Source of the DNA: Candidatus Kuenenia stuttgartensis
GTDB lineage: Bacteria; Planctomycetota; Brocadiia; Brocadiales; Brocadiaceae
Length of the DNA: 32,000 bases
Direction: 5' to 3'
NCBI RefSeq assembly: GCF_900232105.1
Contig: NZ_LT934425.1
Coordinates: forward strand, 3,810,001 to 3,842,000
Part shown: piece by piece, positions 1-27,887 of the stretch
How the letters are laid out: each line of letters opens with the position of its first letter
Position numbering within the stretch: the stretch's first letter is position 1
Position numbers and translations under genes: made by a program
The notes under the pieces: model-generated
Told to the model about the DNA's origin: nothing
Databases searched by the model: none
What the model saw: only the letters and a program-made list of their open reading frames with translations

Positions 1-3000
1 GTTTTTACAGTATCAGCAATTCTTTTTCTGATAGTATTTTCCATCCCATCGTTGATAGCAAGCCATGAAAACTCAAATAAACAATCATTCAAAAGCTCAA
101 TTCCGCAATCTACAATCCAAAACTTGTCCTCGACTTCGACCGGGGATCCGAAATTAGACTCGGCGGCATTTGCCCAGAAAACAAAGAAACTTCAAATACC
201 CTTCTTAGCCAATAACGGCCAGGTAGATGAACAGGTGAAATTCTATGCCAATACTTTTGGCGGAACTGTGTTCGTAACGAAGGACGGTGAGATTGTGTAT
301 TCCTTGCCGAATAATAGTTCAGATGTAGAGACGCAATGCCTTGCGTCTTCAATGCGTTCGCCCAATGGGATACACAATGCAAAATGCAAAATACAAAATA
401 CACGAAACATGTCAAATACCACAAATCGTTTATCGTGCATCTTGCATCATGAATCAAACATCCCATATTGCACCAATTGTCTTTTAGCATGCCTTGCTAA
501 ACATACCGGACGAGACACCCAGGGAGTTGCCATTAAAGAGACGCTTGTAGGCGGCAGAGTTCAGGAGATAACTGGAAATGAAAAGGCTGTAACAAAGGTG
601 AGCTATTTTAAAGGAACCGACAAATCTCAATGGAAAACCAATATTTCAGCATATGATGTAGTATCGCTTGGAGAAGTCTACGACGGTATAGAACTCAAAT
701 TAAAGGCGTATGGAAATAATGTAGAGAAGCTTTTTTGTGTAAAACCAGACGCAAACCCCGAACAAATACAGGTAAAGCTCAGTGGTGTAATAGATTTGCG
801 GGTAAATAACGAAGGACAGCTTGTGGCAGAGACAAAGCTTGGGGCGGTAAAGTTTACAAAACCCGTGGCATATCAGGAAATAAACGGCAGACGAGTGGAC
901 GTGGAATGTAAATATACGATTGCGGATTGTGGAATGCAGAATGCGGAATGTAAAACAAATCTGAAATCCGAAACCCGAAACTTGTCCTCGACTGAGATCG
1001 GGGATCCGCAATTAGAATACGGCTTCACCGTAGCAAGCTACGACTGCACAAAAGACCTCATCATCGACCCCCTGCTGGCATCCACGTACGTGGGCGGGTC
1101 TAGTAGTGGTGATTTTGGTAATTCTCTCGCCCTCGACACAAGCGGGAACGTATATGTGACGGGGTGGACTTATTCATCAGACTTTCCGACGACGAGCGGG
1201 GCTTATGATACCTCTTTTAATGGTTATATGGATGTCTTTGTCTCGAAGCTGAATAGTGGATTAACTAGTTTGCTGGCATCCACGTATCTGGGAGGGTCTG
1301 GTGGTGAGTCGGGGTATTCTCTTACCCTCGACACAAGCGGGAACGTATATGTGATGGGGTATACTGGTTCAACAGACTTTCCGACCACGAGCGGTGCTTA
1401 TGATACCTCCTATAATGGTGGTAATTATTATGGTGATGTCTTTGTCTCGAAGCTGGACAGTGGATTAACGAGCCTGCTAGCATCCACGTACCTGGGCGGG
1501 TCTAATGATGATATTGGTAATTCTCTCGCCCTTGACACAAGCGGGAATGTATATGTGACAGGGAATACTTCTTCATCAGACTTTCCTACCACGAGCGGGG
1601 CACATGATACCTCTCTTAATGGTGGTTATTATGATGTCTTTGTCTCGAAGCTGGACGGTGGACTGACGAGACTGCTGGCATCCACGTACCTGGGCGGGTC
1701 TGCTGATGATTATGGTAAATCTCTTGCCCTCGACACAAGCGGGAACGTATATGTGACGGGGAATACTCCTTCAACAGACTTTCCGACTACGAACGGGGCA
1801 TACGATACCTCTTTTAATAGCGGCAGTGCCGTCTTTATCTCGAAGCTGGACGGTGGATTAACGAGCCTGCTGGCATCCACTTTCTTGGGCGGGTTTGGTG
1901 ATGATCGGGGTTATTCTCTCAGCCTCGACACAAGCGGGAACGTATATGTGACGGGGCTTGCTGGGCCAAACTTTCCGACCACGAGCGGGGCATATGATAC
2001 CACTTTTAATGGTGGTTATGCTGCCTTTGTTTCGAAGCTGGATGGTGGATTAACGAGCCTGCTTGCTTCCACGTTCCTGGGCGGATCTAGTGAGGCTTGG
2101 GGTTATTCTCTCTCCCTCGACACAAGCGGGCGTGTATATGTGACGGGGTTTACTACGTCAACAGACTTTCCGACCACGAGCGGGGCATATGATACATCCT
2201 TTAATGGTGGTTATGATGTCTTTGTCTCGAAGCTGAACAATGGATTAACGGGCCTGCTGGCATCCACGTACCTTGGTGGGTCTGATTATGATTTTGGTAA
2301 TTCTCTTATCCTCGACACAAGCGGGCATGTATATGTGACGGGGTCTACTGGATCAACAGGCTTTCCGACGACGAGTAGTGCATATGATACCTCTCATAAT
2401 GGTGGAAGTTATAATGTCTTTGTCTCGAAGCTGGACGGTAATCTTTCTGCCTCTGCTGCAACCACACCTACCCCTTCGCCCACGCCTTCACCTGCACCAA
2501 CACCGTCTCCAACAACAAGCCCAGAGGAAGAAAACCTCCTGGAAAAATACGCGCCGATTTTGTATATGCACTCTAAGGAGCGATTACATCCTACAAATGT
2601 TAAAGTAATGTTGGAAAATTCAGAACTATACGAAAAAATATGTAAAAAAGAAAAAAAAGATGGTACGTGTAAAAAATATAAAGGAGAACAAGTAGATACA
2701 AAAGATAAAAAACTTACTACAGATTTGTTAATGAATGATTACAATATGGATGATTACAATGATGATAACTATTATTATCTTCAGCTAAAAAAGAAGGCAG
2801 AGAAGAAGGCAAAAAAGGAGGAATGGAAAGAACGACAAACTGTTTATGGCCGTAAATTTATTAGCGAAGAGGATAAAACAAAAACAGTGCTTCAATATTG
2901 GTTTTTTTATGTTTACAATGATTGGAGCGGCTCTTATGAAGGCGGTAATAAGCACGAAGGGGACTGGGAAATGATCCAGATTATTTTAGACAGCAATAAG

Positions 3001-3888
3001 CAGCCATGGAAAATTACCTATTCTTTTCATCGTGGCGGGCAAACATTCTTATGGGATGACAAAGAGGTAAGCAAAAGCGATGATGGAAATCACCCTTTGG
3101 TATATATGACTTTGGGGGGGCACGGGTGTTGGAACAAACCTGGAAATCACAAGTGGTATCAAGAACCTGCAACGTGCATGGATTGTACTGATGAGACAGC
3201 TGATAATGGTGACGTATTACATCCGGATACTATGTCTAATGCTGAAATTGATGAAATAAAAACGAGTACAAAAAAATATGCTTATGTAATTGAAGACATG
3301 ACTGATTGGACAGAGGAAAATCAAGATTGGATATATTGGAAAGGGTACTGGGGAAAGCAGACTAAAAAGAAAATGAATAACAAAAGAGATTACGATATTA
3401 TATACGGGTATAATTCCGGTCCCTCAAGTCCGCCCTACATTGATTACATAGATGATGAAATAGGTGGTCGTTGGGAAAAACCAATATTGTGGGCAACAAG
3501 TCCTAAGCCATCAGATTATGAAATTTGTGCTTCTTCCAATATCAAAATTATTGCCCATGATATAGAGGGTAATGTTTCGAACCTTTTGGATAATTGTTCG
3601 TTTGATACTTCTTGTGGTGGATGCGCAACCATTAAAATATTGTATTCAGAAAAGGACCAGATATTTGAAGTCTATTCCCTCGACGGCGAAGAAGTAACCC
3701 TGAAAATCAGCAGATACAACAGGAATACAAAGGAAGTGTGCGAAGTGGAATTTGACTGGCTTGAAATTCCCAGGAACGGCAAGGCAACACTTAGATTTTC
3801 TCCAGATGAAAACCCAAATCTTGAAATGGAAATTGACCACGACCTTAATGGAATTTTTGATTATCGTGTATCGCCAAATTATGTATAG
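1..3888 (+). CDS. Secreted SBBP beta-propeller repeat protein, paralog 1 (5' end outside window) with Vps62/DUF946-like C-terminal module
   Basis: Frame 1 is open from nt 1. VFTVSAILFLIVFSIPSLIASHE is the signal-peptide core; nt 1-188 are identical to paralog 2 (5683-5870), whose ATG lies 21 nt (7 codons) upstream of the equivalent point. There are seven ~66-aa repeats LLASTYLGGS..D.G.SLALDTSGNVYVTG.T.S.DFPTTSGAYDTS...DVFVSKL (SBBP signature). A Pro/Thr linker spans ~2455-2525. The C-terminal KYAPILYMH...YWFFYVYN...HEGDWEMIQI...HPLVYMTLGGHG resembles the Vps62/DUF946 family; the domain call is from memory and no HMM was run. Confidence 0.85.
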   Translation, partial: VFTVSAILFLIVFSIPSLIASHENSNKQSFKSSIPQSTIQNLSSTSTGDPKLDSAAFAQKTKKLQIPFLANNGQVDEQVKFYANTFGGTVFVTKDGEIVYSLPNNSSDVETQCLASSMRSPNGIHNAKCKIQNTRNMSNTTNRLSCILHHESNIPYCTNCLLACLAKHTGRDTQGVAIKETLVGGRVQEITGNEKAVTKVSYFKGTDKSQWKTNISAYDVVSLGEVYDGIELKLKAYGNNVEKLFCVKPDANPEQIQVKLSGVIDLRVNNEGQLVAETKLGAVKFTKPVAYQEINGRRVDVECKYTIADCGMQNAECKTNLKSETRNLSSTEIGDPQLEYGFTVASYDCTKDLIIDPLLASTYVGGSSSGDFGNSLALDTSGNVYVTGWTYSSDFPTTSGAYDTSFNGYMDVFVSKLNSGLTSLLASTYLGGSGGESGYSLTLDTSGNVYVMGYTGSTDFPTTSGAYDTSYNGGNYYGDVFVSKLDSGLTSLLASTYLGGSNDDIGNSLALDTSGNVYVTGNTSSSDFPTTSGAHDTSLNGGYYDVFVSKLDGGLTRLLASTYLGGSADDYGKSLALDTSGNVYVTGNTPSTDFPTTNGAYDTSFNSGSAVFISKLDGGLTSLLASTFLGGFGDDRGYSLSLDTSGNVYVTGLAGPNFPTTSGAYDTTFNGGYAAFVSKLDGGLTSLLASTFLGGSSEAWGYSLSLDTSGRVYVTGFTTSTDFPTTSGAYDTSFNGGYDVFVSKLNNGLTGLLASTYLGGSDYDFGNSLILDTSGHVYVTGSTGSTGFPTTSSAYDTSHNGGSYNVFVSKLDGNLSASAATTPTPSPTPSPAPTPSPTTSPEEENLLEKYAPILYMHSKERLHPTNVKVMLENSELYEKICKKEKKDGTCKKYKGEQVDTKDKKLTTDLLMNDYNMDDYNDDNYYYLQLKKKAEKKAKKEEWKERQTVYGRKFISEEDKTKTVLQYWFFYVYNDWSGSYEGGNKHEGDWEMIQIILDSNKQPWKITYSFHRGGQTFLWDDKEVSKSDDGNHPLVYMTLGGHGCWNKPGNHKWYQEPATCMDCTDETADNGDVLHPDTMSNAEIDEIKTSTKKYAYVIEDMTDWTEENQDWIYWKGYWGKQTKKKMNNKRDYDIIYGYNSGPSSPPYIDYIDDEIGGRWEKPILWATSPKPSDYEICASSNIKIIAHDIEGNVSNLLDNCSFDTSCGGCATIKILYSEKDQIFEVYSLDGEEVTLKISRYNRNTKEVCEVEFDWLEIPRNGKATLRFSPDENPNLEMEIDHDLNGIFDYRVSPNYV
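1072..2450 (+). repeat. Seven tandem coding repeats (~198-204 bp) = SBBP blades of paralog 1
   Basis: The recurrent DNA block ctgctggcatccacgta...gacacaagcgggaacgtatatgtgacgggg...gtctttgtctcgaagctg occurs at 1072, 1270, 1474 and onward. Confidence 0.9.
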
Positions 3889-5603: not shown

Positions 5604-5661
5604 GGTGCAGGGGGTGGACTGGATTTCTCCATCGATACAACTACCAATTCCGGAGGCTGCC

Positions 5662-8600
5662 ATGATACAAAGAAATTGTGTTGTTTTTACAGTATCAGCA
5701 ATTCTTTTTCTGATAGTATTTTCCATCCCATCGTTGATAGCAAGCCATGAAAACTCAAATAAACAATCATTCAAAAGCTCAATTCCGCAATCTACAATCC
5801 AAAACTTGTCCTCGACTTCGACCGGGGATCCGAAATTAGACTCGGCGGCATTTGCCCAGAAAACAAAGAAGCTTCAAATACCCTTTATAGCCAACAACGG
5901 ACAGGTAGATGAACAGGTGAAATTCTATGCCAATACATTTGGCGGGACGGTGTTCGTGACAAAAGACGGCGAGATTGTGTATGCGTTGCCGAATAATAGT
6001 TCAGAGTCGGGAGTTCGATGTTCGAAGAATCAAGAGGCAAAATGCATGATTCAGGGTCCACGAAACATGTCAAATACCACAAATCGTTTATCGTGCATCT
6101 TGCATCATGAAGCAAACATCCCATATTGTACCAATTGTCTTTTAGCTGGCATTGCTAAGAATATCGGTCAAGACACCCAGGGAGTTGCCATTAAAGAGAC
6201 GCTTGTAGGTGGCAGAGTTCATGAGATAACTGGAAATGAAAAGGCTGTAACAAAGGTGAGCTATTTTAAGGGAAATGACACATCTCAATGGAAAACCAAT
6301 ATTTCAGCATATGATGTAGTATCGCTTGGTGAAGTCTACGACGGTATAGAACTCAAATTAAAGGCGTATGGAAATAATGTCGAGAAGCTTTTTTGTGTAA
6401 AACCAGATGCAAACCCCGATCAAATACAGGTAAAGCTCAGTGGTGCAAAAGATTTGCGTGTAAATGACGAAGGGCAGCTTGAAGCAGAAACGGAATTGGG
6501 GATGGTTAAGTTTACAAAACCCATAGCATATCAGGAAATCGATGGGAATCGGGTGGCGGTAGATGTTGAATACGACATTCAGAATCCAGAAGTCGGGAGA
6601 CGGAATCAAAAAATTCCAAATTGGAAATCAGCAAGCTACAATAAAACACGGACAAAAAAGTTTGTCCATTCCACCCATAAACACAATCCAAATTCTGAAA
6701 TCCAAAATCCAAAATTGGAGTACGGCTTCAAAGTCGCCTCTTACGACAAAACATATGAACTAATCATCGACCCCCTACTAGCCTCCACATACCTAGGCGG
6801 GTCTGATAATGATTATGTTTATTCCCTTGCCCTCGATACGAGCGGGAATGTATATGTGACGGGGTATACCAAGTCATCAAACTTTCCTACGACGAGCGGG
6901 GCATATGATACCTCTTTTACTGGTGGTAATTATCAGGAACATGTCTTTGTCTCGAAGCTGGACGGTGGATTAACGAGCCTGCTGGCATCCACGTTCCTGG
7001 GCGGGTCTGATTATAATTGTGGTTATTCTCTAGCCCTCGACACAAGCGGGAATGTATATGTGACGGGGAAGACCGGGTCATCAGACTTTCCTACGACGAG
7101 CGGGGCATATGATACCTCTTTTACTGGTGGTAATTATCAGGAACATGTCTTTGTCTCGAAGCTGGACGGTGGATTAACGAGCCTGCTGGCATCCACGTTC
7201 CTGGGAGGGTCTGGTCAGGATTATGGTTATTCCCTCGCCCTCGACACGAGCGGGAATGTATATGTGACGGGGTATACTATGTCATCAGACTTTCCGACGA
7301 CGAGTGGGGCATATGATACCTCTCAAACTGGTTCTTCTGATGTCTTTGTCTCGAAGCTGAACAGTGGATTAACGAGCCTGCTGGCATCCACGTACCTGGG
7401 CGGGTCTAGTGATGATTATGGTTATTCCCTCGCCCTCGATACGAGCGGGAATGTATATGTGACGGGGTATACTAAGTCATCAGACTTTCCGACGATGAGT
7501 GGGGCATATGATACATCTTTGAGTCAAACTGGTTCTCATGATGTCTTTGTCTCGAAGCTGAACAGTGGATTAACGAGCCTGCTGGCATCCACGTACCTGG
7601 GCGAGCCTGGTTATAATGAGGGTCGTTCTCTTGCCCTCGACACGAGCGGGAATGTATATGTGACGGGGTATACTATGTCACCACTCTTTCCGACTACGAG
7701 CGGGGCATATGACACCTCTTATAATTATGGTTATGATGTCTTTGTATCTAAGCTGGACGGTGGATTAACGAGCCTGCTGGCATCCACGTATCTGGGCGGG
7801 CTTAGTGATGATTATGGTTATTCCCTCGCCCTCGACACGAACGGGAATGTGTATGTGACGGGGCAAACTGAGTCATCACGCTTTCCGACTACGAGGGGTG
7901 CATATGATACTTCCGATAGTGATGATTCTGATGTCTTTGTCTCGAAGCTGAACAGTGGATTAACGAGCCTGCTGGCATCCACGTACCTGGGCGGGTCTAA
8001 TGATGATGAGGGTTATTCTCTCGTCCTAGACACAAGCGGGAATGTATATGTAACGGGTTGGACTAGCGGAGGAGGCTTTCCGACTACGAGTGGGGCATAT
8101 GATACCTCTTATTATTATGGTTATGATGTCTTTGTATCTAAGCTGGACGGCAATCTTTCTGCCACATCAGCAACACCAACACCAACACCAACACCAACAC
8201 CAACACCAACACCAACTCCAACTACGTGTACTGACAGCTACGAGCCTAACAACAGTACGTCTGAAGCTTACGGACCTTTGCGTTCTGGATCGAGTTACAG
8301 TGGCAAGATTTGCTCGGATAGTGACGTGGATTGGTTTAAGGTGAATATAACAATCGAAGGTACAATATCACTGTCCTTAACGGTTCCGTCTTCCAATGAT
8401 TATGAATTAGAGCTGTATGATGCTTCTTATGCGAAAATCGTCAGTTCTACTAATGGGAGTGGTGTGAGCGAGTCGATTGACTACGATGCCACTTCAACGG
8501 GAAATTACTATATCAAGATATACGGATTCAGTGGCTCATCGAATACTACAAATTCATATACACTCACCTATACGTATACGTCTAAGACAACACCAACCCC

Positions 8601-8910
8601 TACAACAACGCTTACTCCAGGTGGTCACACTGCTGCCTTATCTGTAAGTCCGTCAGAAGTATCTCTATATGATTCTGTTGTAGTAACAGTCGTGGATTGG
8701 GATTTAAATACAACCAGTAGCTATGCCGATACTGGAAATGTGAGAATTAAATCAAATTCAGATACAACAGGCTTCTATCTTGGGTTAATGGAAATGAATG
8801 TGAACTCTGGCAGTTTTAAGGGTACATTCGTGACGGGCGATACGACAGACTTGTCTGCATCTCCTCGAAAAATAGGTGTTGGAGTAAATGATACTATAAC
8901 TGTGTCTTAG
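5662..8910 (+). CDS. SBBP beta-propeller repeat protein, paralog 2, 5' portion (truncated by MITE-created stop); includes PPC (pre-peptidase C-terminal)-like domain
   Basis: ATG 5662 is preferred over the track start 5605: GGAGG lies at 5652-5656 and the product starts MIQRNCVVFTVSAILFLIVFSIPSLIA, a signal peptide. There are seven SBBP blades (6775-8160) and a (TP)n linker. CTDSYEPNNS...DVDWFKV...YYIKIYGFSG is PPC-like, followed by an Ig-like module. The stop TAG 8908-8910 is built from the target TA plus the first G of the inserted element. Confidence 0.85.
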   Translation: MIQRNCVVFTVSAILFLIVFSIPSLIASHENSNKQSFKSSIPQSTIQNLSSTSTGDPKLDSAAFAQKTKKLQIPFIANNGQVDEQVKFYANTFGGTVFVTKDGEIVYALPNNSSESGVRCSKNQEAKCMIQGPRNMSNTTNRLSCILHHEANIPYCTNCLLAGIAKNIGQDTQGVAIKETLVGGRVHEITGNEKAVTKVSYFKGNDTSQWKTNISAYDVVSLGEVYDGIELKLKAYGNNVEKLFCVKPDANPDQIQVKLSGAKDLRVNDEGQLEAETELGMVKFTKPIAYQEIDGNRVAVDVEYDIQNPEVGRRNQKIPNWKSASYNKTRTKKFVHSTHKHNPNSEIQNPKLEYGFKVASYDKTYELIIDPLLASTYLGGSDNDYVYSLALDTSGNVYVTGYTKSSNFPTTSGAYDTSFTGGNYQEHVFVSKLDGGLTSLLASTFLGGSDYNCGYSLALDTSGNVYVTGKTGSSDFPTTSGAYDTSFTGGNYQEHVFVSKLDGGLTSLLASTFLGGSGQDYGYSLALDTSGNVYVTGYTMSSDFPTTSGAYDTSQTGSSDVFVSKLNSGLTSLLASTYLGGSSDDYGYSLALDTSGNVYVTGYTKSSDFPTMSGAYDTSLSQTGSHDVFVSKLNSGLTSLLASTYLGEPGYNEGRSLALDTSGNVYVTGYTMSPLFPTTSGAYDTSYNYGYDVFVSKLDGGLTSLLASTYLGGLSDDYGYSLALDTNGNVYVTGQTESSRFPTTRGAYDTSDSDDSDVFVSKLNSGLTSLLASTYLGGSNDDEGYSLVLDTSGNVYVTGWTSGGGFPTTSGAYDTSYYYGYDVFVSKLDGNLSATSATPTPTPTPTPTPTPTPTTCTDSYEPNNSTSEAYGPLRSGSSYSGKICSDSDVDWFKVNITIEGTISLSLTVPSSNDYELELYDASYAKIVSSTNGSGVSESIDYDATSTGNYYIKIYGFSGSSNTTNSYTLTYTYTSKTTPTPTTTLTPGGHTAALSVSPSEVSLYDSVVVTVVDWDLNTTSSYADTGNVRIKSNSDTTGFYLGLMEMNVNSGSFKGTFVTGDTTDLSASPRKIGVGVNDTITVS
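6775..8160 (+). repeat. Seven tandem SBBP blade repeats of paralog 2
   Basis: Same ~198-bp coding unit as 1072-2450. Blocks 6905-7085 and 7085-7265 are nearly identical at the DNA level. Confidence 0.9.
8171..8212 (+). repeat. (CAACAC)7 hexanucleotide microsatellite encoding a (TP)n linker
   Basis: Seven perfect CAACAC units read directly. The unit length is a multiple of 3, so copy-number change keeps the frame. Confidence 0.9.
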
Positions 8911-19730: not shown

Positions 19731-20786
19731 TTACAACAACGGGAGAGAGCACAGGATTTCTTTTTGTATATTTTCGGTAGTAATAGATTCCAGACAGATT
19801 TTCGGAAAACAGGTTTTTCTTACTTCATCAGAACAAGGGCTGCATGATGTTGGGCGGTAACATATGTTAACTGATTTTCCGCGAGGACCCCATACGGCAG
19901 GATCGGTAGGGCCAAATATTGACAGCGTAGAAATTCCCATTGCTGCGGCCAGGTGGGTAATGCCGGAATCATTGCCAATAAAGAGGTCGCACTGTTGTAA
20001 TATTGCGGCGAGTTTTGGCAGTGGTTGATTATCGATTACGCAGATATTTTTTTTGGGTAAATTACCGGCATTTTTGGTGACCACGGTATCTGCCGGCCCC
20101 TTTATAATAAAAATTTGTGCGTTAAGACGCTCTATTAACCAATGAATTATTGAAGAGTAGTTTATGAAGGGCCATGATTTATGGATACTGCCGCTTCCGG
20201 GATGGATTGCTATTGTTTTTTGTCCGGCATTGGGGGCGTTATCTCGAAAAAAATCCTTTCCGGCTTTCAGGTCTTCCTCATTCAGGTAGATAATTGGCGA
20301 AGTGTTTGAATATGGTATTTCCAGTAATTTCAGGAAATTCAGAAAATGATTACTGATATGAACTGGTTCTGAATTATTGGGGAAAGGATTATAGCAAAGA
20401 ACCTTTCGTGCCCCGGATTTTTTAAGATTTTCGGAGAAAATGGTATCCTTGTCAGAAACAAACGCAATGATTAAATCAAATTTAGAAAATCTTTTTGTTA
20501 ACGTATCAGGGAGTAACGCGTTTTTTCTGAATAATGATGAAACATCTGACTGATCAAATCTGCTCAAGGCATTGGCATAGAAACGGCCATGAACGATTTC
20601 CAGATATGAGGGATAGCCCATAATTTCAATGTATGCGTTTGGAAAGTATTCTCGCAAAGCATGCAGGGCGGGTAAGGTAATAATAAGATCGCCGATAGCG
20701 CAAGGGCGTAGGATGAGTATGTGTTTTTCTGGCGGCAATTTCTTTGCAATTTTTGACAAAATATTAAACGATGAAATACGAAACAC
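19731..20786 (-). CDS. Glycosyltransferase family 9 (heptosyltransferase-like)
   Basis: ILILRPCAIGDLIITLPALHALRE and GNDSGITHLAAAMGISTLSIFGPTDPAVWGP are typical GT9 motifs. The start is uncertain: GTG 20786 lies inside a palindromic repeat, and TTG 20738 (MPPEKHILILRP...) fits family N-termini better. Confidence 0.8.
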   Translation of the reverse strand: MFRISSFNILSKIAKKLPPEKHILILRPCAIGDLIITLPALHALREYFPNAYIEIMGYPSYLEIVHGRFYANALSRFDQSDVSSLFRKNALLPDTLTKRFSKFDLIIAFVSDKDTIFSENLKKSGARKVLCYNPFPNNSEPVHISNHFLNFLKLLEIPYSNTSPIIYLNEEDLKAGKDFFRDNAPNAGQKTIAIHPGSGSIHKSWPFINYSSIIHWLIERLNAQIFIIKGPADTVVTKNAGNLPKKNICVIDNQPLPKLAAILQQCDLFIGNDSGITHLAAAMGISTLSIFGPTDPAVWGPRGKSVNICYRPTSCSPCSDEVRKTCFPKICLESITTENIQKEILCSLPLL

Positions 20787-20851
20787 TCAATTTAATCCTC
20801 CCCCTTTTGGGGGTAAGGGGGAGGATTTTTGGGGTTTGTTTCGTGTTTCGT
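20778..20851. repeat. Nested palindromic element
   Basis: The outer arms are ACGAAACAC (20778-20786) and GTGTTTCGT (20843-20851). The inner arms are AATCCTCCCCC (20794-20804) and GGGGGAGGATT (20817-20827), with the CCCCCTTTTGGGGG mini-hairpin between the inner arms. Confidence 0.65.
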
Positions 20852-20937
20852 TCGTACTTCGAATTTCGTTTTTTTTATTTCGTGCTTGTTTGGTTCTGGC
20901 TATGCCAGCTTAAGAAACAAAGTGAAACAATTTTAAT

Positions 20938-21273
20938 TTATTCAGAGTCACATCCCTTCTCTTCCCTCTTCTTCTTTATCATTTCAGAAACCTTTTCTAC
21001 AAACTTGGGGTCTCCATCTTTTTCTGCTCGTTTTCTGGCTTCTTCTTTGATTTTTTTCACATCGAGGATGTCACCCATGCACTCTTCGGCAGAACTGCAC
21101 CACTCAACACAGGTGGGCACCTTGTCTTTAAATATGGTAGTTCCGCATTTCGGGCAATCTGCCTTTTCCTCGTCACTCCACATTTCAACATCACAGCCGC
21201 AATTATCACATTTCCGGTCGATTGGTGTAGGGGTAGCGTTTCTTATACTACCGGGGCATTTAACTTTAGCCAT
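20938..21273 (-). CDS. Cys-rich zinc-ribbon protein of unknown function with Lys/Glu-rich tail
   Basis: The start is moved to ATG 21273 (MAKVKCPGS...) because AAGGAG lies 7 nt upstream. The track start 21327 has no RBS. Cys pattern: CPG...CDNCGC...CPKCG...CVEWCSSAEEC. Confidence 0.7.
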   Translation of the reverse strand: MAKVKCPGSIRNATPTPIDRKCDNCGCDVEMWSDEEKADCPKCGTTIFKDKVPTCVEWCSSAEECMGDILDVKKIKEEARKRAEKDGDPKFVEKVSEMIKKKREEKGCDSE

Positions 21274-21492
21274 TCCGTTTCTCCTTATATTAAGGGGTAA
21301 TGCTTTTTCTTTATTAAGCACCTTCATTATGTATCTTTATCTAAAATAAAATCCTATGTGAATTTGCTTCGCAGGTCAAGAATTTTCTCAATCGCAAGCC
21401 GATAAAGATCAGAGATGAGGTGCATTCCCATATTCTAACAAAAGAATAACAGAAAATTTCATAGAGCGGTAAAGCCGCAATCAAAATGTTAC

Positions 21493-21539
21493 GGATTTTG
21501 TAATTTGGGCATTGGAATTTTACCGCATTACTTGACCTC
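21493..21539 (-). repeat. ~47-nt intergenic motif, copy B
   Basis: The reverse complement reads gaggtcaagtaatgcggtaaaattccaatgcccaaattacaaaatcc, to be compared with 18235-18282. Confidence 0.6.
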
Positions 21540-21610
21540 AAAATAATCTTGACATTAAATATATCAATATGTTAGCTTTTTGTGGTTCATAAACATAGGT
21601 GGGGAGAAAT

Positions 21611-21643
21611 ATGTATTTTTACTATAACATAAGGTGCTCTTAG
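21611..21643 (+). promoter_or_regulatory. Candidate leader peptide ORF MYFYYNIRCS (4 of the first 5 codons are Tyr/Phe after Met)
   Basis: The ORF is ATG 21611 tat ttt tac tat aac ata agg tgc tct TAG (stop at 21641-21643). GGGGAG lies 5 nt upstream. It sits 33 nt upstream of a perfect terminator and 100 nt upstream of the DAHP synthase start. Confidence 0.5.
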
Positions 21644-21675
21644 GGTTTAGTATTGTATAAAAAGATTAATTTGTT

Positions 21676-21709
21676 ACCCTAAAACTAACGGTTTTAGGGT
21701 TTTTTTTTT
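21676..21709 (+). terminator. Intrinsic terminator in the DAHP synthase leader
   Basis: ACCCTAAAAC (21676-21685), a loop TAACG, and GTTTTAGGGT (21691-21700) form a perfect 10-bp stem, followed by nine more T (21701-21709). No + strand gene lies upstream that it could terminate. The A-rich side on the minus strand is not followed by a U-tract. Confidence 0.75.
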
Positions 21710-21742
21710 GCCTATAGAATTATATGGTTGGGGGTATAGCCA

Positions 21743-22759
21743 ATGATTATTGTGATGAAGGCTGAGTCGACAAAAGAAGATGTTGCTCATGTCCTTAAAG
21801 AAATTGAGAAGACCGGCTTAAAAGGCGTTCTTTTGCAGGGAACAAACAGGAATGTGATTGCGGTAATTGGTGATGAACGCATTTTGCCGCAGGATTTTTG
21901 GGATGTATTGCCAGGGGTGGAAAAGAGCGTTCCTATATTAGCGCCTTATAAGCTGGCAAGCAGGGAAGGGAAGGATTTTAATACGATAATACATCTGCCA
22001 AATGGCAAAACTATCGGGGGGGAAAAGATTGCGGTAATAGCAGGTCCGTGTGCGATAGAGAGCAAGGAGCAGATCGTTGAGATTGCAAAGAGAGTGAAAG
22101 ATGCAGGCGCTACCGCAATACGGGGAGGTGCTTTTAAACCCAGAAGCAATCCGTACACGTTCCAGGGCCTTATGGAGGAGGGCTTGATACACATGGCCCA
22201 TGCCCGTGATGTTACGGGGTTGCCAATAGTTACAGAAATTCTGACCCCTGAGCATGTTAAATTAGTGAGCAAATATAGTGACATATTGCAAGTCGGAACC
22301 CGCAATATGCAAAATTTCCTGCTTTTGCGGGCAGTAGGTGAGTCCGGAAAGCCGGTAATCTTAAAACGAGGTATGTCGGCGACTCATGATGAATTTCTGC
22401 TTGCAGCGGAATATATATTATCACAAAATAATCCTAACGTGATTTTGTGTGAAAGGGGGATTAGAACATTTGAGACGTTTACGCGCTTCACCTTGTCGTT
22501 GAGCATTGTGCCGGTACTGAAAGAAATGACACATTTACCTGTTATTGTTGATCCCAGCCATGGTACTGGAAAACGCTCTCTTGTGAACCCCATGTCGAAG
22601 GGGGCCATTGCGGTTGGCGCAGATGGTTTAATTATAGAAACACACCCGGACCCTGAAAAATCGTTTGTGGACGGACCTCAAACAATTGATCTTGATGCTT
22701 TTGCGCAACTGATGGAGGAATTGAAACCTGTTGCCAGGGCAGTAGGAAGAGAGATATAA
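21743..22759 (+). CDS. aroF: 3-deoxy-7-phosphoheptulonate (DAHP) synthase, type I-beta with N-terminal ferredoxin-like regulatory domain
   Basis: 338 aa. MIIVMKAESTKEDVAHVLKEIE..., IAGPCAIES, IRGGAFKPRSNPYTFQGL, LKRG and VDPSHGTGKR align along the full length with the recalled Thermotoga-type DAHPS. Confidence 0.9.
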   Translation: MIIVMKAESTKEDVAHVLKEIEKTGLKGVLLQGTNRNVIAVIGDERILPQDFWDVLPGVEKSVPILAPYKLASREGKDFNTIIHLPNGKTIGGEKIAVIAGPCAIESKEQIVEIAKRVKDAGATAIRGGAFKPRSNPYTFQGLMEEGLIHMAHARDVTGLPIVTEILTPEHVKLVSKYSDILQVGTRNMQNFLLLRAVGESGKPVILKRGMSATHDEFLLAAEYILSQNNPNVILCERGIRTFETFTRFTLSLSIVPVLKEMTHLPVIVDPSHGTGKRSLVNPMSKGAIAVGADGLIIETHPDPEKSFVDGPQTIDLDAFAQLMEELKPVARAVGREI

Positions 22760-22817
22760 AGTAATAGTCAGACCTTGTTGTTATTTATTATCCATTTTTT
22801 TTAAAAGGAACCTTAGT

Positions 22818-23072
22818 ATGGAATATATTGAAAAAGTAATAGAACAACTCTCAAATGAAACATTGCACAGTTTGAAAGAAATGCACAAAGTGAAAGATAG
22901 CAATGAACGAAAAACTCAAGCCGAGATAGTTCATCTGCTCTGCCAATCGATGAGTTCGCTCATATCCAGCACGGCATCAATGATGTCCGAAGTTCATGAT
23001 TTCAATGATGAAGACGAAGATTTTGAGGATGAAGATGAAGATTTTGAAGATGAGGATGAAGATAAGTTTTAA
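22818..23072 (+). CDS. Small hypothetical protein with extremely acidic repeat tail (DEDEDFEDEDEDFEDEDEDKF)
   Basis: AAGGAA RBS and an 84-aa ORF. There is no recognisable family. The tail is encoded by tandem gaagatgaagattttga units. Confidence 0.5.
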   Translation: MEYIEKVIEQLSNETLHSLKEMHKVKDSNERKTQAEIVHLLCQSMSSLISSTASMMSEVHDFNDEDEDFEDEDEDFEDEDEDKF

Positions 23073-23169
23073 TCGTACTACGTATGCAAATGCAGTGTAA
23101 GAGATTAAAGACATCATAATCACAGTAAGTCTGTGATATTTTACATGGCGGGGGATTACCAGATTTCTT

Positions 23170-23670
23170 ATGCGCAGACGAGATAAAGAGATTACGGATC
23201 GAAAAGAAATTGATGAAATATTGACAAAGGTAAAAACAGGCAGACTAGGTACATGTTGCCGGGAAATCCCTTATATCACACCGATGAATTTTACTTATGA
23301 CAGTGAAGCGCTGAAAATATTTCTTCACTGTGCAAACGAAGGGAAAAAACTGGAGAATATCCGTATTAACCGGAATGTTTGCTTTGAAGTTGATGATGTA
23401 GCAGAGATCATTGTGAAACAACCAACGTGTGCTTCTTCTGTTGCGTATCGCTCAGTAGTTTTATTTGGCACAATAAAGGAAGTAACTGACCATGAAGAAA
23501 AGAATTATGCCTTACAGAAACTTGCTGAAAAATACGCCCCACAGAATCCTAAAACCCCATTCACTGACGCAGCGCTGAGCAGGACCAATGTACTCGAAAT
23601 ACAGATCAATGAAATGACTGCGAAGAGAAGTCCTGCCAGACCCGCGCATGCCGATCCTGCAAAAAAGTAA
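23170..23670 (+). CDS. Pyridoxamine 5'-phosphate oxidase family (PNPOx-like, Pyridox_ox_2-type) flavoprotein
   Basis: MRRRDKEITDRKEIDEIL....GRLG... is the N-terminus typical of this family. The size (166 aa) fits. Confidence 0.7.
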   Translation: MRRRDKEITDRKEIDEILTKVKTGRLGTCCREIPYITPMNFTYDSEALKIFLHCANEGKKLENIRINRNVCFEVDDVAEIIVKQPTCASSVAYRSVVLFGTIKEVTDHEEKNYALQKLAEKYAPQNPKTPFTDAALSRTNVLEIQINEMTAKRSPARPAHADPAKK

Positions 23671-23697
23671 ATAATTTAATATTGAGGAAAGATTATT

Positions 23698-24885
23698 ATG
23701 GAGATTATTGTTTCAAAAAGATTACAGTCTATTGGCGCTTATGCGTTTGCAGAGGTAGATAAGGAAGTTGAAAAGTTGAGAGCAATGGGAGTTACCCCGA
23801 TTGATTTTGGAGTAGGAGACCCGACCGTTCCCACTCCTGAGATCATTCGCAAGGCGACGCAGGAGGGGATCACGAAGCGTAAGTCGTCAGGATACCCAAG
23901 CTATATTGGTACCGCCGAGTTTAGGCAAACAATCGCACAATGGACAAAGAAAAGATTCGGAGTCACGTTAGACCCTTCCACAGAGATTTCTTCCACAATT
24001 GGATCAAAAGAGGGGATTTTTAACTTTCATGAAGGGTTCATTGATCCCGGCGACTATGTAATAATTCCTACTCCCGGATATCCCCCATACACACGAGGAA
24101 CATTGTTTGCCGAGGGTACGCCCTATTATGTGCCGCTTCTGAAAGAAAATAATTTTCTTATGGACTTGAAATCGATCCCGGAAGAGGTATGCAAAAGGGC
24201 GAAGATTTTATGGCTTAATTACCCGAACAGCCCGACAGGGGCCGTTGCGCCGTTGTCTTATTTAAAAGAAGCAGTGGAATTTGGCAAAAGGCATAACATT
24301 ATTGTTGCATCGGATGAGGCATACAGTGAGATATATTTTAATGAACCGCCGCACAGTATTCTTGAAGTGGCAAAAGAGGGGGTCATTGTTTTTAATTCGT
24401 TGTCTAAGAGAAGCGCAATGACGTGTTACCGCATCGGCTGGGTTGCAGGAGACAAAAAGATTGTTGATGTTTTTAAAAAGGTGAAAACGAATATTGATTC
24501 AGGGACGCCCACCTTTATACAGGATGGCGCAATCGCTGCATTGAGTGACGAAACACACGTCGGGGAAATGCGGGCTGATTATAAACTGAAGAGAGACCTG
24601 CTCGTTACCGCATTCAAAAAAATCAATCTTCCCGATTGCACCCCTGAGGCTACCATCTATTTATGGCAGAAAGTGCCTCAGGGAATGAGTTCGGTGGAAT
24701 TTGCTAAAAAGCTTCTTTCTCCAGACATCGCCATAGTAACTACGCCGGGAGGATGGATCAGTGATAAAACAGAAAGCGGTATAAATCCAGGTGAGGGATA
24801 TGTCCGATTCGCGTTGGTTCCCGGTATCGAAGATACAAAAAAGGCTGCAAAGCGGATAGAGGAACAACTATCAAAAATTATATGA
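23698..24885 (+). CDS. dapL: Class I aminotransferase, LL-diaminopimelate aminotransferase (DapL)-like
   Basis: AYAFAEVDK...IDFGVGDPTVPTP, IGSKEGI, LNYPNSPTGA, DEAYSEIYF and SLSKRSAMTCYRIGW (PLP-Lys) match the recalled DapL pattern. Substrate specificity is inferred. Confidence 0.7.
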   Translation: MEIIVSKRLQSIGAYAFAEVDKEVEKLRAMGVTPIDFGVGDPTVPTPEIIRKATQEGITKRKSSGYPSYIGTAEFRQTIAQWTKKRFGVTLDPSTEISSTIGSKEGIFNFHEGFIDPGDYVIIPTPGYPPYTRGTLFAEGTPYYVPLLKENNFLMDLKSIPEEVCKRAKILWLNYPNSPTGAVAPLSYLKEAVEFGKRHNIIVASDEAYSEIYFNEPPHSILEVAKEGVIVFNSLSKRSAMTCYRIGWVAGDKKIVDVFKKVKTNIDSGTPTFIQDGAIAALSDETHVGEMRADYKLKRDLLVTAFKKINLPDCTPEATIYLWQKVPQGMSSVEFAKKLLSPDIAIVTTPGGWISDKTESGINPGEGYVRFALVPGIEDTKKAAKRIEEQLSKII

Positions 24886-24977
24886 TGATAGGGAAATTAG
24901 TGACACAATGCCTGGCGGGTTCAGGTTTGCAATCTGAATACATAGTTTAATGTTGTTTGAGATATATCCGGAAAATT

Positions 24978-25955
24978 ATGAAAAAACGATTATTTAGCGG
25001 AATCCAGCCGAGCGGGGAAGTTCATATAGGAAACTATCTGGGTGCAATAAAGAATTGGGTAGGGATGATTGATCGATACGATTGTATTTTCTGTATTGTC
25101 GATTACCATGCGATAACGGTCGAATACGACCCTAAAGAAATGCAAAACCGAATTATTAACGCTGCGGCAGTTAATATTGCAGCCGGACTTGACCCAAATA
25201 AATGCATCCTCTTTGTGCAATCTCATGTACCGGAACACACGGAACTTGCCTGGATACTGAATACTGTGACGCCTATGGGTCACCTGGAAAGAATGACTCA
25301 GTTCAAAGATAAGGCAAAGCAGCACAGGGATAATATTAATGCTGGTTTATTTACCTACCCCGTCTTGCAGGCGGCAGATATATTGGTTTATAAGGCGGAA
25401 GCGGTGCCTATTGGTGAAGACCAGGTACAGCATATAGAATTGGCAAGAGAGATTGCCCGAAAGTTTAATTCGCGGTACGGAGAAATATTTCCTGACCCGA
25501 AAGAAATACTTTCAGATGCCCCAAGGATTATGGGCATTGATGGGAAGACAAAGATGAGCAAAAGTAGGGATAATTATATCTCGTTGGTAGAATCTTCTGA
25601 GTCTATATGGAAAAAATTGTCTACAGCGGTAACGGATGAGAATCGGAAGAGACGGACAGACCCGGGGAATCCTGAAATATGCAACCTTTTTACTTTACAT
25701 AAGCATTATTCTTCCATTGAACAAATAGAACGAATCAACAGGGAATGCCGTACTGCGGAGATAGGTTGTGTTGAATGCAAAAAAATATTGTATGAAAATA
25801 TCATAAAAGCATTATCTCCCATACGGGAAAAATATGAAGAGTTAATAAAAGATAAGCATTCTATAATTGATATATTGCACGAAGGTGCAAAAAAGTGTAA
25901 GAACATGGCGGAGATTACCATGGCAGAAGTACGAAGACAAATGGGACTGACTTAG
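24978..25955 (+). CDS. trpS: Tryptophan--tRNA ligase
   Basis: FSGIQPSGEVHIGNYLGA (HIGH) and KMSKS are present. ATG 24978 (MKKRLFSGIQPSG) is preferred over the track TTG 24957. Confidence 0.9.
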   Translation: MKKRLFSGIQPSGEVHIGNYLGAIKNWVGMIDRYDCIFCIVDYHAITVEYDPKEMQNRIINAAAVNIAAGLDPNKCILFVQSHVPEHTELAWILNTVTPMGHLERMTQFKDKAKQHRDNINAGLFTYPVLQAADILVYKAEAVPIGEDQVQHIELAREIARKFNSRYGEIFPDPKEILSDAPRIMGIDGKTKMSKSRDNYISLVESSESIWKKLSTAVTDENRKRRTDPGNPEICNLFTLHKHYSSIEQIERINRECRTAEIGCVECKKILYENIIKALSPIREKYEELIKDKHSIIDILHEGAKKCKNMAEITMAEVRRQMGLT

Positions 25956-26189
25956 ATAATGAGCAACTAAAAGCAATCGGCAGTCCACAGTCTGCAATTT
26001 GCCGACCGCCGACTGTATATTGAAGACTGTAGAAGAGACCAGTAAATATTTTGCCAATAAATGCAAAGAAATTACTGATAAGGTACTAAGAAGCGAAACA
26101 TATTTACCGCCTTGTGGCACACCTCAGACTCCATTCCCACTTATTTTAGCGAACATAAGCGTTTTTCCAGAATTATAGAAAAAGAAAAG

Positions 26190-27887
26190 ATGTCAGACCA
26201 ATTCAAGAAAACAATAGTTTCTTTATTAGCAGCAAAAACAAATCTTTCCGAAGACGAAATAGATAAATACATTGAAATACCTCCTGACCCAAAGATGGGG
26301 GATTATGCATTTCCCTGCTTCAGTCTTTCAAAAATGCTGAAAAAACCTCCCGCGAAGATTGCTTCAGAATTAGCCGACCTCCTGCATCCTGTTAGCCCGA
26401 TAAATAAGATAGAAGCAACAGGCCCCTATCTGAATTTGTTTTTAGACAAGGCAATATTCTCTGCGGTTGTTTTAAAGAAAATTGTGAATGAAGGTGACAC
26501 ATATGGCTGCGATACCATTGGCAAGGGGAAAACCGTTGTTATTGATTACTCCTCCCCAAACATCGCAAAACACCTTGCCGTCCATCATCTTCGCTCGGCA
26601 TTAATTGGAAATGCACTGTATAATATTTACGGGAATTTAGGGTACAAATGCATAGGGATCAACCATCTTGGTGATTGGGGGACGCAGTTTGGTCAATTGA
26701 TTGTTGCATATAGAAAATGGGGAGAAAAGGATCTCGAACAACATACCATTACCGACTTAAACAAACTCTACGTTACCTTTCATCGTGAAGCGGAAAAGGA
26801 TAATCATCTGGAGGACGAAGCGAGGGAATGGTTTAAAAAACTGGAGGCAGGAGACGCAGAGGCGATGGAGTTATGGGAACGTTTCAAGGATATCAGCCTT
26901 AAAGAGTTTCAAAGGATATATAAGATGCTAGGGATTCATTTTGACGCCTTTGTTGGCGAGAGTTTTTACAATACAATGGTTGAGGATACAGTATCGGGGA
27001 TTAAGAAGAAAGGGTTAGCCTGTATCAGCGAGCAGGCATTAATCGTAAATCTCGAGGCGTATAATATGCCGCCATGTTTGCTTAGAAAAAAGGACGGTAC
27101 AACACTTTATGCAACACGCGACATTGCAGCGGCAGAGTACCGGAAATCTGTATATGATTTTGAAAAAATGATTTATGTAGTTGGTTCTGAACAAAAACTT
27201 CACTTTTGTCAGATATTTAAGGTTTTGGAGTTAATGGGATATGACTGGGCAAGCCAGTGTGTCCATGTGGATTTCGGCCTTATGAAATTTAAAGAGGGCA
27301 AGATGTCCACCCGCAAGGGGCGGGTCATATTGTTGGAAGACTTATTAATTGAGGCAGTAGACCGTATCAAAAGGATTATTGAAGAAAAGAATCCTTTGCT
27401 AAAGGACAAGGAAATGGTTGCAAGGGATGTGGGTATTGGGGCGGTTATATTTGCTGATTTAAGCACAAAACGAAACAAGGATGTAATATTTGATTGGGAT
27501 ACCGTATTAAATTTTGAAGGAGAGACGGGACCTTATGTGCAGTATACTCACGCCCGTCTTTGCAGCATTTTGAGGAAATATGGAAAAGATGTAACTACGG
27601 ACATTGATTATCCATTATTAAATGAAGATGATGCCATTCATCTTATAAAGAATCTATGGCAATATCCCTTTGTAGTACTAAAAGCGGCACAGTTTTATGA
27701 GCCGTCATTAGTGAGTAATTATCTTATTGATATTTGTGCCGGTGTAAATAAGTTCTATAATGCTCACAGGGTATTATCCGAAGATGAAGGGCTTACAAAA
27801 GCAAGAATACTTCTGGTAGATGCCGCCAGGCAAATCATAAAAAATGGTTTAAAAATCCTTGGCATGCAGGCGCCTGTGGAAATGTAA
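26190..27887 (+). CDS. argS: Arginine--tRNA ligase
   Basis: SSPNIAKHLAVHHLRSALIGNAL (HIGH-type), the family length, and a C-terminal DALR-like anticodon-binding region support the call. ATG 26190 (MSDQFKK...) is preferred over the track start 26112. Confidence 0.9.
   Translation: MSDQFKKTIVSLLAAKTNLSEDEIDKYIEIPPDPKMGDYAFPCFSLSKMLKKPPAKIASELADLLHPVSPINKIEATGPYLNLFLDKAIFSAVVLKKIVNEGDTYGCDTIGKGKTVVIDYSSPNIAKHLAVHHLRSALIGNALYNIYGNLGYKCIGINHLGDWGTQFGQLIVAYRKWGEKDLEQHTITDLNKLYVTFHREAEKDNHLEDEAREWFKKLEAGDAEAMELWERFKDISLKEFQRIYKMLGIHFDAFVGESFYNTMVEDTVSGIKKKGLACISEQALIVNLEAYNMPPCLLRKKDGTTLYATRDIAAAEYRKSVYDFEKMIYVVGSEQKLHFCQIFKVLELMGYDWASQCVHVDFGLMKFKEGKMSTRKGRVILLEDLLIEAVDRIKRIIEEKNPLLKDKEMVARDVGIGAVIFADLSTKRNKDVIFDWDTVLNFEGETGPYVQYTHARLCSILRKYGKDVTTDIDYPLLNEDDAIHLIKNLWQYPFVVLKAAQFYEPSLVSNYLIDICAGVNKFYNAHRVLSEDEGLTKARILLVDAARQIIKNGLKILGMQAPVEM

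Follow-up and report, generated by a model that had tools for sequence, protein, structure and literature searches.

Why should a ten-codon open reading frame (ORF) full of aromatic codons, followed by an intrinsic terminator, stand directly in front of aroF in Candidatus Kuenenia stuttgartensis? The locus lies in a stretch of 32,000 nucleotides (nt) from contig NZ_LT934425.1 (positions 3,810,001 to 3,842,000), which we refer to as the window and whose own numbering we use throughout; aroF encodes a DAHPS (a synthase of 3-deoxy-D-arabino-heptulosonic acid 7-phosphate). An initial annotation, based on the letters of the sequence, proposed that the region is a transcription attenuator sensing Tyr and Phe. 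We hold it to be likely, at a probability of roughly 0.8, that the element is a ribosome-mediated leader-peptide attenuator that would tune aroF to the level of charged tRNA-Tyr and, secondarily, tRNA-Phe. This reading draws support from the mini-ORFs of related bacteria, from the position of their stop codons, from a conserved promoter, and from folding of the leader RNA under a ribosome mask.

Reading positions 21200-22000 afresh, we found every element that had been described: a Shine-Dalgarno (SD) sequence, the ORF MYFYYNIRCS (ATG TAT TTT TAC TAT AAC ATA AGG TGC TCT TAG), and a terminator before aroF (Table 1). Only the spacings needed correction, each by a single nucleotide, with 4 rather than 5 nt between the SD and the ATG, 32 rather than 33 nt between the leader stop codon and the hairpin, and 33 rather than 34 nt between the end of the T-tract and the aroF ATG. 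The hairpin (21676-21700) has 10 bp and a 5-nt loop, or 11 bp and a 3-nt loop if T21686 and G21690 pair, and the run of ten T occupies 21700-21709. It was also recovered by an independent terminator scan (21676-21709), and no other + strand hairpin in the window combines a stem of 9 bp or more with 7 or more T among the 10 nt that follow. Its reverse strand runs into AACAAATT, with no T-tract, and we therefore rejected a bidirectional terminator. Runs of four aromatic codons are rare in the window, with just 16 in all six frames together, and 4 of the 9 leader residues after Met are aromatic, compared to a background of 9.7% (binomial P = 0.0075, calculated for this single ORF); the features thus exceed chance expectation. 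The 7-bp pairing proposed earlier, between TTAGGGT at the leader stop codon and ACCCTAA at the start of the terminator 5' arm, is exactly complementary.

We then asked how this arrangement compares with the region upstream of aroF in other bacteria, drawing aroF loci from genome and metagenome collections and adding the contigs of ten chosen homologues. A Tyr/Phe-rich mini-ORF precedes the same terminator in 14 other distinct Brocadiales/Planctomycetota aroF loci, comprising 10 Kuenenia-/Brocadia-like loci with ORFs of 10-19 codons and 4 more distant loci with longer ORFs, among them ..SYYYPFNYFPGGGRS and ..WYFGFYYFTFHGKGSQGA. When the 11 best-defined leaders (Kuenenia-/Brocadia-like, that of the window included) were pooled, their 159 residues contained 45 Tyr, 22 Phe, and 6 Trp, such that aromatic residues make up 46% of the total versus 9.7% of the proteins encoded in the window, and Tyr alone 28% versus 4.8%. 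Leader length varies (10, 13, 14, 17, 18, or 19 codons), and a 9-nt indel separates the window leader from its two closest relatives, with the frame intact; the frame, the aromatic run, and the position of the stop codon are all kept. The aromatic codons themselves vary synonymously (TAT/TAC, TTT/TTC) or by exchange of Tyr and Phe. Judged from these alignments, preservation of the frame combined with synonymous variation indicates that selection acts on the codons as translated and not just on the RNA sequence. Each relative's mini-ORF ends at or beside a (T/C)AGGG that is able to pair with the terminator 5' arm, and in L161 and L162, the other two Kuenenia-clade loci, GGGAG lies 6-7 nt ahead of the leader ATG. 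No constant set of genes lies upstream of aroF: the neighbours include flagellar genes, a gene for a tetratricopeptide-repeat protein, glutamate synthase, and rpmH, and they are frequently encoded on the opposite strand. Because the leader is kept with aroF while these neighbours vary, the 5' region belongs to aroF. The initial annotation had suggested aligning the aroF upstream regions of relatives as a check, and doing so revealed both conserved aromatic-rich mini-ORFs and compensatory changes in the terminator stem.

For the terminator, an alignment of 16 sequences contains compensatory changes at 6 of the 11 pairs, with 0 of 500 shuffles scoring as well, and RNAalifold independently predicts the helix. 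In the competing antiterminator, formed by (T/C)AGGG(T/C) and the start of the 5' arm, 93% of cells are paired across the 16 sequences. In 12 of 13 distinct loci, no part of the upstream region scanned complements the terminator 5' arm better than a 20-nt stretch around the stop codon; none of about 175 competing stretches is equally complementary to the arm (in the Kuenenia locus, 0 of 169), and the distance from stop codon to arm is held at 27-37 nt across loci. The nearly invariant part of the terminator (CCCT/AGGG) is precisely the part that it has in common with the antiterminator, and the distal stem covaries freely. That invariance is limited to the shared core fits a three-way constraint on segment 2 (the 5' strand of the antiterminator) and segments 3 and 4 (the arms of the terminator). 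In L005, from a Planctomycetota metagenome-assembled genome (MAG) with 61% aroF identity, the compensatory change is itself three-way, with CTCAGGG in segment 2, CCCTGAG in segment 3, and CTTCAGGG in segment 4; segment 2 there lacks the TAG, and the ORF stops 6 nt further on, still adjacent. In a clade with 72% aroF identity, the stem is altered to CCCTATCCGCC and the codons ahead of TTAGGG supply a matching GGCGG, which lengthens the duplex to -15 to -20 kcal/mol. These patterns point to an antiterminator supported by conservation and position, not by covariation.

Does the position of a ribosome choose between the two helices? We folded the leader with a ribosome footprint masked. When the footprint covers codons 2-5, nascent RNA reaching to 21689 forms the antiterminator; with the footprint centred on the stop codon, the antiterminator is blocked and the terminator forms. 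These folds agree with the earlier proposal that a ribosome at the stop codon masks TTAGGGT and that a ribosome at the YFYY codons leaves it free. In the window, the calculated free energies are -12.8 kcal/mol for the terminator, about -8.3 to -9.5 kcal/mol for the antiterminator, and -7.3 kcal/mol for a weak hairpin between the Tyr codons and segment 2.

In an attenuator of this kind, the leader ORF follows a promoter, and a candidate promoter lies upstream of the SD. Its -35 element falls within a block, CTTGACATTAAATATATCAATATGTTAGCTTTT, that the window shares with L161 and L162 in spite of divergence on either side (alignment A3), and good promoters of the form TTGACA-N16/17-TAAAAT or TAAACT also occur in other relatives. 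Judging from the promoter's position, transcription would start near 21585 (about 21583-21587), upstream of the SD. The conserved promoter thus argues against a transcription start downstream of the leader ORF. A variant is seen in L168 (Ca. Wujingus; L168:1340-1370), where a near-consensus TTGACA-N17-TAAACT has a -10 element ending 6 nt before the leader ATG; given so short a distance, the leader peptide there may be translated from a leaderless mRNA.

Starting from these elements, their conservation and position, the covariation of the terminator, and the masked folds, we propose a model that predicts where transcription starts, that the leader is translated, where the ribosome stalls, and what the regulatory output is. 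Transcription from the conserved promoter (-35 at 21549-21554) would start at about 21585, and a ribosome would load at the SD and translate MYFYYNIRCS. When Tyr and Phe are ample, the ribosome would reach the TAG at 21641-21643, and its footprint would cover TTAGGGT (21640-21646). With TTAGGGT covered, the 5' arm of the terminator (21676-21686) would pair with the 3' arm, and polymerase would stop at about 21709, leaving a transcript of ~125 nt. Under a shortage of charged tRNA-Tyr or tRNA-Phe, the ribosome would instead stall on codons 2-5 (21614-21625), with its footprint ending about 3-5 nt short of 21640, so that TTAGGGT would be free to pair with the emerging ACCCTAA. Once the antiterminator had formed, the terminator could not nucleate, and polymerase would read through into aroF. 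Read-through would probably reach the downstream genes as well, because there is no strong terminator until after argS.

To ask how specific the element is, we built a covariance model, R1, from the stretch between segment 2 and the T-tract of these loci. R1 has one match in the window, at 77 bits, and nothing else there is significant. Across 176 loci, it finds one match per Brocadiales-type locus, each immediately 5' of aroF, including L083 and L165, which were both outside the model-building set. In other phyla, R1 gives borderline matches at the same position in two deltaproteobacterial-type loci, L105 (E = 0.029) and L114 (E = 0.059). No Rfam family reached its gathering threshold anywhere in the window, and within 21300-21800 neither the amino-acid leader families (Phe_leader, Trp_leader, His_leader, and others) nor the T-box matched, even at E up to 10. 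We rejected a T-box or riboswitch on the lack of any Rfam match (RF00230) and on the length of the leader RNA, which at about 125 nt is too short. The sub-threshold Rfam matches that did appear (NsiR1 at 19.8 bits and E = 0.17, L10_leader, rimP, and others) all fall on the terminator, and we attribute them to chance.

Several observations weigh against a ribosome-mediated attenuator. The window leader is the shortest and least aromatic of its family, with 4 aromatic codons, and its SD spacer is a mere 4 nt. Several Brocadia-like loci have no obvious SD, the leaders of L001, L081, and L082 lack one, and some leaders of the 72%-identity clade have no nearby canonical start or are ambiguous in frame (L169). 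The antiterminator is short (7 bp closing a 29-nt loop) and less stable than the terminator, and branch migration could displace it. Its covariation was not significant in two alignments, with 1 compensatory pair and 291 of 500 shuffles scoring as well, because the core is nearly invariant. A conserved 1:2 hairpin, sought in 15 loci, was not found; the folds differ, and the -7.3 kcal/mol hairpin of the window is not conserved. Given no conserved 1:2 helix, the device appears to consist of two helices, with termination dependent on a ribosome occupying the stop codon, and untranslated RNA would default to read-through. We also know of no study of transcription-translation coupling in Planctomycetes.

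The distribution of the element among relatives also contains exceptions. In Loosdrechtia (L165:1380-1475) the terminator is intact, but the leader, ..FCYIPFR*YYKQG*, a remnant that can still be recognised, is broken by an in-frame TAG. TTAGGG is replaced there by AAGGGTAA, and AGGGTA remains the best complement of the arm; the whole looks like a decaying or remodelled attenuator. In Scalindua (L166), a related terminator and an ATAGGG are present, but no ORF is convincingly aromatic; Anammoxibacter (L174) lacks a terminator, and a Planctomycetota locus with 66% identity (L175) has a hairpin and no aromatic ORF. The initial annotation had named conservation of the hairpin without an aromatic-rich ORF as evidence that would tell against it; this is not what we see in the 14 other loci, but it is what we see in Loosdrechtia and Scalindua. 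As far as these sequences allow us to judge, the device is widespread in Brocadiales yet not universal, and it may be decaying in some lines.

Could the terminator be regulated by something other than a translating ribosome, with the mini-ORF incidental? A trans-acting sensor, such as a TRAP/PyrR-type protein, a small RNA, or uncharged tRNA, would sit well with the invariant antiterminator core and its lack of covariation, with the hairpins of Loosdrechtia and Scalindua that stand without a clear aromatic ORF, and with the several loci that have no SD. It is nevertheless improbable: the aromatic runs, their frame, and the stop position survive indels and synonymous changes in 14 other loci; we see no repeats, of (G/U)AG for instance, that would suggest a protein-binding motif; and the T-box, like every other Rfam family, fails to match at E up to 10, with the ~125-nt leader in any case too short for one. 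We give somewhat less credence to an unregulated, partly leaky terminator that insulates aroF from upstream transcription or sets a low basal level. The hairpin and its T10 are indeed strong and thermodynamically favoured over the antiterminator, but a conserved promoter separates the leader from the upstream gene, and the upstream genes vary and are often on the other strand, leaving nothing constant to insulate against. Nor would a leaky terminator account for the conservation of the Tyr/Phe ORF and for its constant placement relative to the arm.

With its start codon, SD, and a terminator of its own, the ORF could instead be an independent gene for an aromatic micropeptide, or its short transcript a small RNA, unrelated to the control of aroF; the terminator bears a weak resemblance to the small RNA NsiR1, under the gathering score. 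However, that match is far under threshold and restricted to the terminator, the sequence and length of the peptide are not conserved whereas its aromatic content and C-terminal pairing codons are, and the element is invariably immediately 5' of aroF, so we regard this idea as quite unlikely, a shade more so than a leaky terminator. The least probable of the alternatives is translational control, in which translation or structure of the leader governs access to the ribosome-binding site of aroF. A small hairpin does adjoin the aroF SD in the full-leader fold, but it is weak and does not sequester the SD, and what is structurally conserved is a canonical intrinsic terminator, whose T9-10 tract precedes the SD by about 30 nt. 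We judged all four of these explanations weaker than ribosome-mediated attenuation because none of them explains in-frame aromatic codons together with a stop codon that tracks the antiterminator.

Table 1. Features of the aroF leader region and adjoining genes in the window, and leader peptides of related loci.
Feature	Position	Strand	Remarks
Candidate -35, TTGACA	21549-21554	+	within block CTTGACATTAAATATATCAATATGTTAGCTTTT kept in three Kuenenia-clade loci; promoter function predicted
Candidate extended -10, TG-T-TAGCTT	21570-21578	+	18-nt spacer to -35; kept as TGTTAGCTT or TGTTAATTT in window, L161, L162
SD of leader ORF, GGGGAG	21601-21606	+	read from sequence; 4-nt spacer (AAAT)
Leader ORF MYFYYNIRCS*	21611-21643	+	ATG 21611-21613, stop TAG 21641-21643; 10 codons
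Candidate regulatory codons Tyr-Phe-Tyr-Tyr (TAT TTT TAC TAT)	21614-21625	+	leader codons 2-5
Segment 2, TTAGGGT, antiterminator 5' strand	21640-21646	+	overlaps leader stop codon; 7-bp complement of 21676-21682
Segment 3, terminator 5' arm ACCCTAAAAC(T)	21676-21686	+	first 7 nt (ACCCTAA, 21676-21682) are the antiterminator partner
Segment 4, terminator 3' arm (G)GTTTTAGGGT and T-tract	21690-21709	+	terminator scan; folding; covariation
SD of aroF, GGGGG	21730-21734	+	8-nt spacer; GGAGG/GGGGG kept in relatives
aroF, type I-beta DAHPS with N-terminal ferredoxin-like regulatory domain	21743-22759	+	PF18152 and PF00793; proposed regulated gene
PNPOx-like flavoprotein	23170-23670	+	probable co-transcription with aroF
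Class I aminotransferase	23698-24885	+	probable co-transcription with aroF
trpS	24957-25955	+	probable co-transcription with aroF
Kuenenia-clade leaders			window MYFYYNIRCS; L161 MYFKYFSIQIRCS; L162 MYFKYCYYQIRRS
Brocadia-like leaders, first four			MKHYAVFYYFKYYRGGS; MKYYAVFYYFRYYRGGS; MKYYTIFYYFRYYKRGWS; YSVFYYFRYYSKEEGC (TTG start)
Brocadia-like leaders, other four			MKWFSVFCYFSYYYKRGWL; MKWFSVFCYFSYYYKRGRL; YYFRYDRPQWGS (TTG start); MKFYFFKYYKRGWS
Leaders of the clade at 72% aroF identity			..SYYYPFNYFPGGGRS; ..SSYYPFNYFPGGGNS
Leader of Planctomycetota MAG at 61% aroF identity (L005)			..WRWYFGFYYFTFHGKGSQGA

The enzyme that the leader would control is, as first identified, a DAHPS of the Thermotoga type: the DAHPS ferredoxin-like domain PF18152 covers residues 1-66 and PF00793 residues 88-328, and the product aligns over its full length with the Thermotoga maritima DAHPS (1RZM/3PG9). 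It matches NF006421 at 469 bits and is 94% identical to its homolog in a Candidatus Kuenenia sp. MAG, 84-88% to those of other Brocadiaceae, and ~70% to that of Scalindua, as expected for DNA of a Kuenenia-like anammox planctomycete; the genes that surround aroF agree with such an origin. The enzyme is presumably inhibited by Tyr and Phe, which we assume by extrapolation from the allostery of the T. maritima enzyme.

Downstream of aroF on the same strand lie the PNPOx-like gene, the aminotransferase gene, trpS, and argS. We found no strong + strand terminator between aroF and argS, and the PNPOx-like, aminotransferase, and trpS genes probably form one operon with aroF. We compared gene order in the window (21743-27887) with that in L161, L162, L165, L166, and L168-L174. 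The order aroF-PNPOx-aminotransferase is kept in most of the Brocadiales loci fetched, with trpS and argS next in the Kuenenia clade. The aminotransferase scores below the cutoffs for LL-diaminopimelate aminotransferase, and its linkage to aroF suggests a possible role in making Tyr and Phe, for instance that of a prephenate or aromatic aminotransferase. The gap that follows aroF, ahead of the PNPOx-like gene, contains an 84-codon ORF (22818-23072) with a very acidic C-terminus (..DEDEDFEDEDEDKF) and no Pfam or NCBIfam match; at its position, a 73-residue gene is called in L162-L164, and L161 has no room for one.

On the other side of the leader, the window encodes a deoxyhypusine-synthase homologue and a heptosyltransferase on the opposite strand. 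Directly upstream of the leader region, two ORFs overlap on opposite strands, 20771-21349 (+) and 20938-21327 (-), neither with a Pfam or NCBIfam match. Of the two, the second is favoured by a promoter-like site on the - strand (21379-21351) and would then be divergent from aroF. Our reading of the leader holds whichever of them is real, because a conserved promoter intervenes and the genes upstream are different in relatives. Elsewhere in the window, a 204-nt unit (68 codons) occurs in four tandem copies at 6774-7580, with 68-91% identity to the first copy, inside a 1101-codon ORF (5605-8910). G+C content rises to about 0.50 at 7001-8000, and likewise at 1001-2000 within a 1278-codon ORF (52-3888).

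How does the proposed device relate to known ones? Leader-peptide attenuation is textbook biology (trp, pheA, pheST). Like the E. coli pheA (pheL) and trp (trpL) leaders, the Brocadiales element has a run of codons for the end product in its leader ORF and mutually exclusive helices between which the position of a ribosome would choose, and in both cases the terminator is more stable than the antiterminator. The E. coli systems, however, use four segments with a 1:2 pause/anti-antiterminator hairpin, for which no conserved counterpart was seen in the Brocadiales leaders, and only in the latter does the stop codon lie inside the antiterminator strand. Moreover, the Brocadiales leader would regulate a DAHPS of the common pathway rather than terminal-branch genes, and whereas untranslated trp leader RNA terminates in E. 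coli, the two-helix device would read through. The T-boxes of Firmicutes likewise sense aminoacylation of tRNA-Tyr, tRNA-Phe, or tRNA-Trp through a choice between terminator and antiterminator in the 5' leaders of aro genes. Unlike the device proposed here, they need no translation, and their conserved structure, which includes a specifier loop and the T-box sequence, extends over about 200-300 nt, compared with ~125 nt here.

Leaders of related function have also been described in front of other DAHPS genes. The AroF of Corynebacterium glutamicum belongs to another DAHPS class, without the ferredoxin-like N-terminal domain. The C. glutamicum aroF operon is nonetheless controlled by a short leader peptide, aroR, in which a Phe-Tyr-Phe triplet lies before the DAHPS gene and stalling raises read-through (Neshat et al. 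2014, as recounted in PMC11802643); in that account, the effect came from Phe limitation only (PMC11802643). By its described features, this arrangement resembles that of Kuenenia, from which it differs in belonging to Actinobacteria and in its Phe-Tyr-Phe triplet, the Kuenenia-type leaders being dominated by Tyr (45 Tyr versus 22 Phe). In Acholeplasma, the Breaker laboratory predicted uORFC-13-1, an upstream ORF coding for Phe and followed by a terminator, exclusively before aroF (PMC8632094). It too combines a promoter, a ribosome-binding site, and Phe codons with an intrinsic terminator directly after, but it comes from Mollicutes, its Phe codons come from a U run rather than a Tyr-rich stretch, and it is a prediction only. 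It has no detectable sequence relationship to our element, as no Rfam family matches the window. In a 2005 comparative survey of Actinobacteria, Phe and Tyr genes yielded no element of this type (PMC1262725), and in the literature we found no report of leader-peptide attenuation in anaerobic ammonium-oxidizing (anammox) bacteria or Planctomycetes. The novelty claimed in the initial annotation therefore holds for this lineage and this DAHPS class, but not for DAHPS genes generally, given aroR-aroF of C. glutamicum and uORFC-13-1 of Acholeplasma.

Finally, we asked whether aromatic leaders also precede this class of DAHPS gene in other phyla. We scanned 150 aroF loci of the class, each with at least 250 nt of upstream sequence, for an ORF with a start codon and at least five aromatics in seven. 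Such a mini-ORF was present upstream of aroF on the forward strand in 23 of the 150 loci, compared with 2 on the reverse strand and a mean of 1.65 in dinucleotide shuffles. Examples are MLSRFYYYAYLYPGEGNASGMLGY and MHTVRYYYYYYFCPSHGNASGMRRL of Syntrophobacterales and other deltaproteobacterial MAGs, ..KKYFFYYYFWWEE.. of Anaerolineales, as well as MFYYYYTKSRCERWLR and MKINSTFNRSLNFYFYFYFYFNSYF, and several of these leaders are followed by a terminator 40-55 nt before aroF. The other-phylum loci include L019, L037, L039, L105, L114, L020, L043, L153, L113, L126, and L106; one group of their leaders has the common tail ..YP.EG.A.GM... The comparison favours viewing the aromatic leaders of other phyla as putative analogous devices; homology to the Brocadiales element is unsupported, with R1 borderline in L105 and L114.

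Tyr-rich leader peptides thus appear to be a recurrent and largely uncatalogued means of controlling this DAHPS class, and the cross-phylum enrichment suggests that one or more Rfam-style families are still missing. A broader reading, which we offer tentatively and rate at a little less than even odds, is that the window element belongs to a broad, uncatalogued class of Tyr-dominated attenuators guarding DAHPS enzymes with a ferredoxin-like domain in several phyla, of which the Brocadiales version would be a minimal, two-helix form. The loci compared here define a sequence family across Brocadiales, with analogous devices apparent in Syntrophobacterales and other deltaproteobacterial MAGs, in Anaerolineales, and elsewhere. 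In the Brocadiales form, the stop codon is embedded in the antiterminator, termination would need a ribosome parked there, and read-through would be the default without translation; the leader peptides of some members may be translated from leaderless mRNA.

Anammox bacteria, autotrophs that grow slowly, matter both to industry and to biogeochemistry. To our knowledge, there are no genetic tools for them, and their gene regulation has been little worked out. A conserved attenuator defined by its sequence offers a testable regulatory element, and it predicts a terminated transcript of ~125 nt that could be found in RNA sequencing data. If the broad-class reading is true, no cis-regulatory RNA mechanism would have been defined in anammox bacteria before this one. 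If the attenuator works as proposed, transcription and translation in Planctomycetes would have to be coupled closely enough for ribosome-mediated attenuation, and the entry step of aromatic synthesis would be doubly controlled by the same end products, once through the allosteric ferredoxin-like domain of the enzyme and once through a leader that senses charged tRNA.

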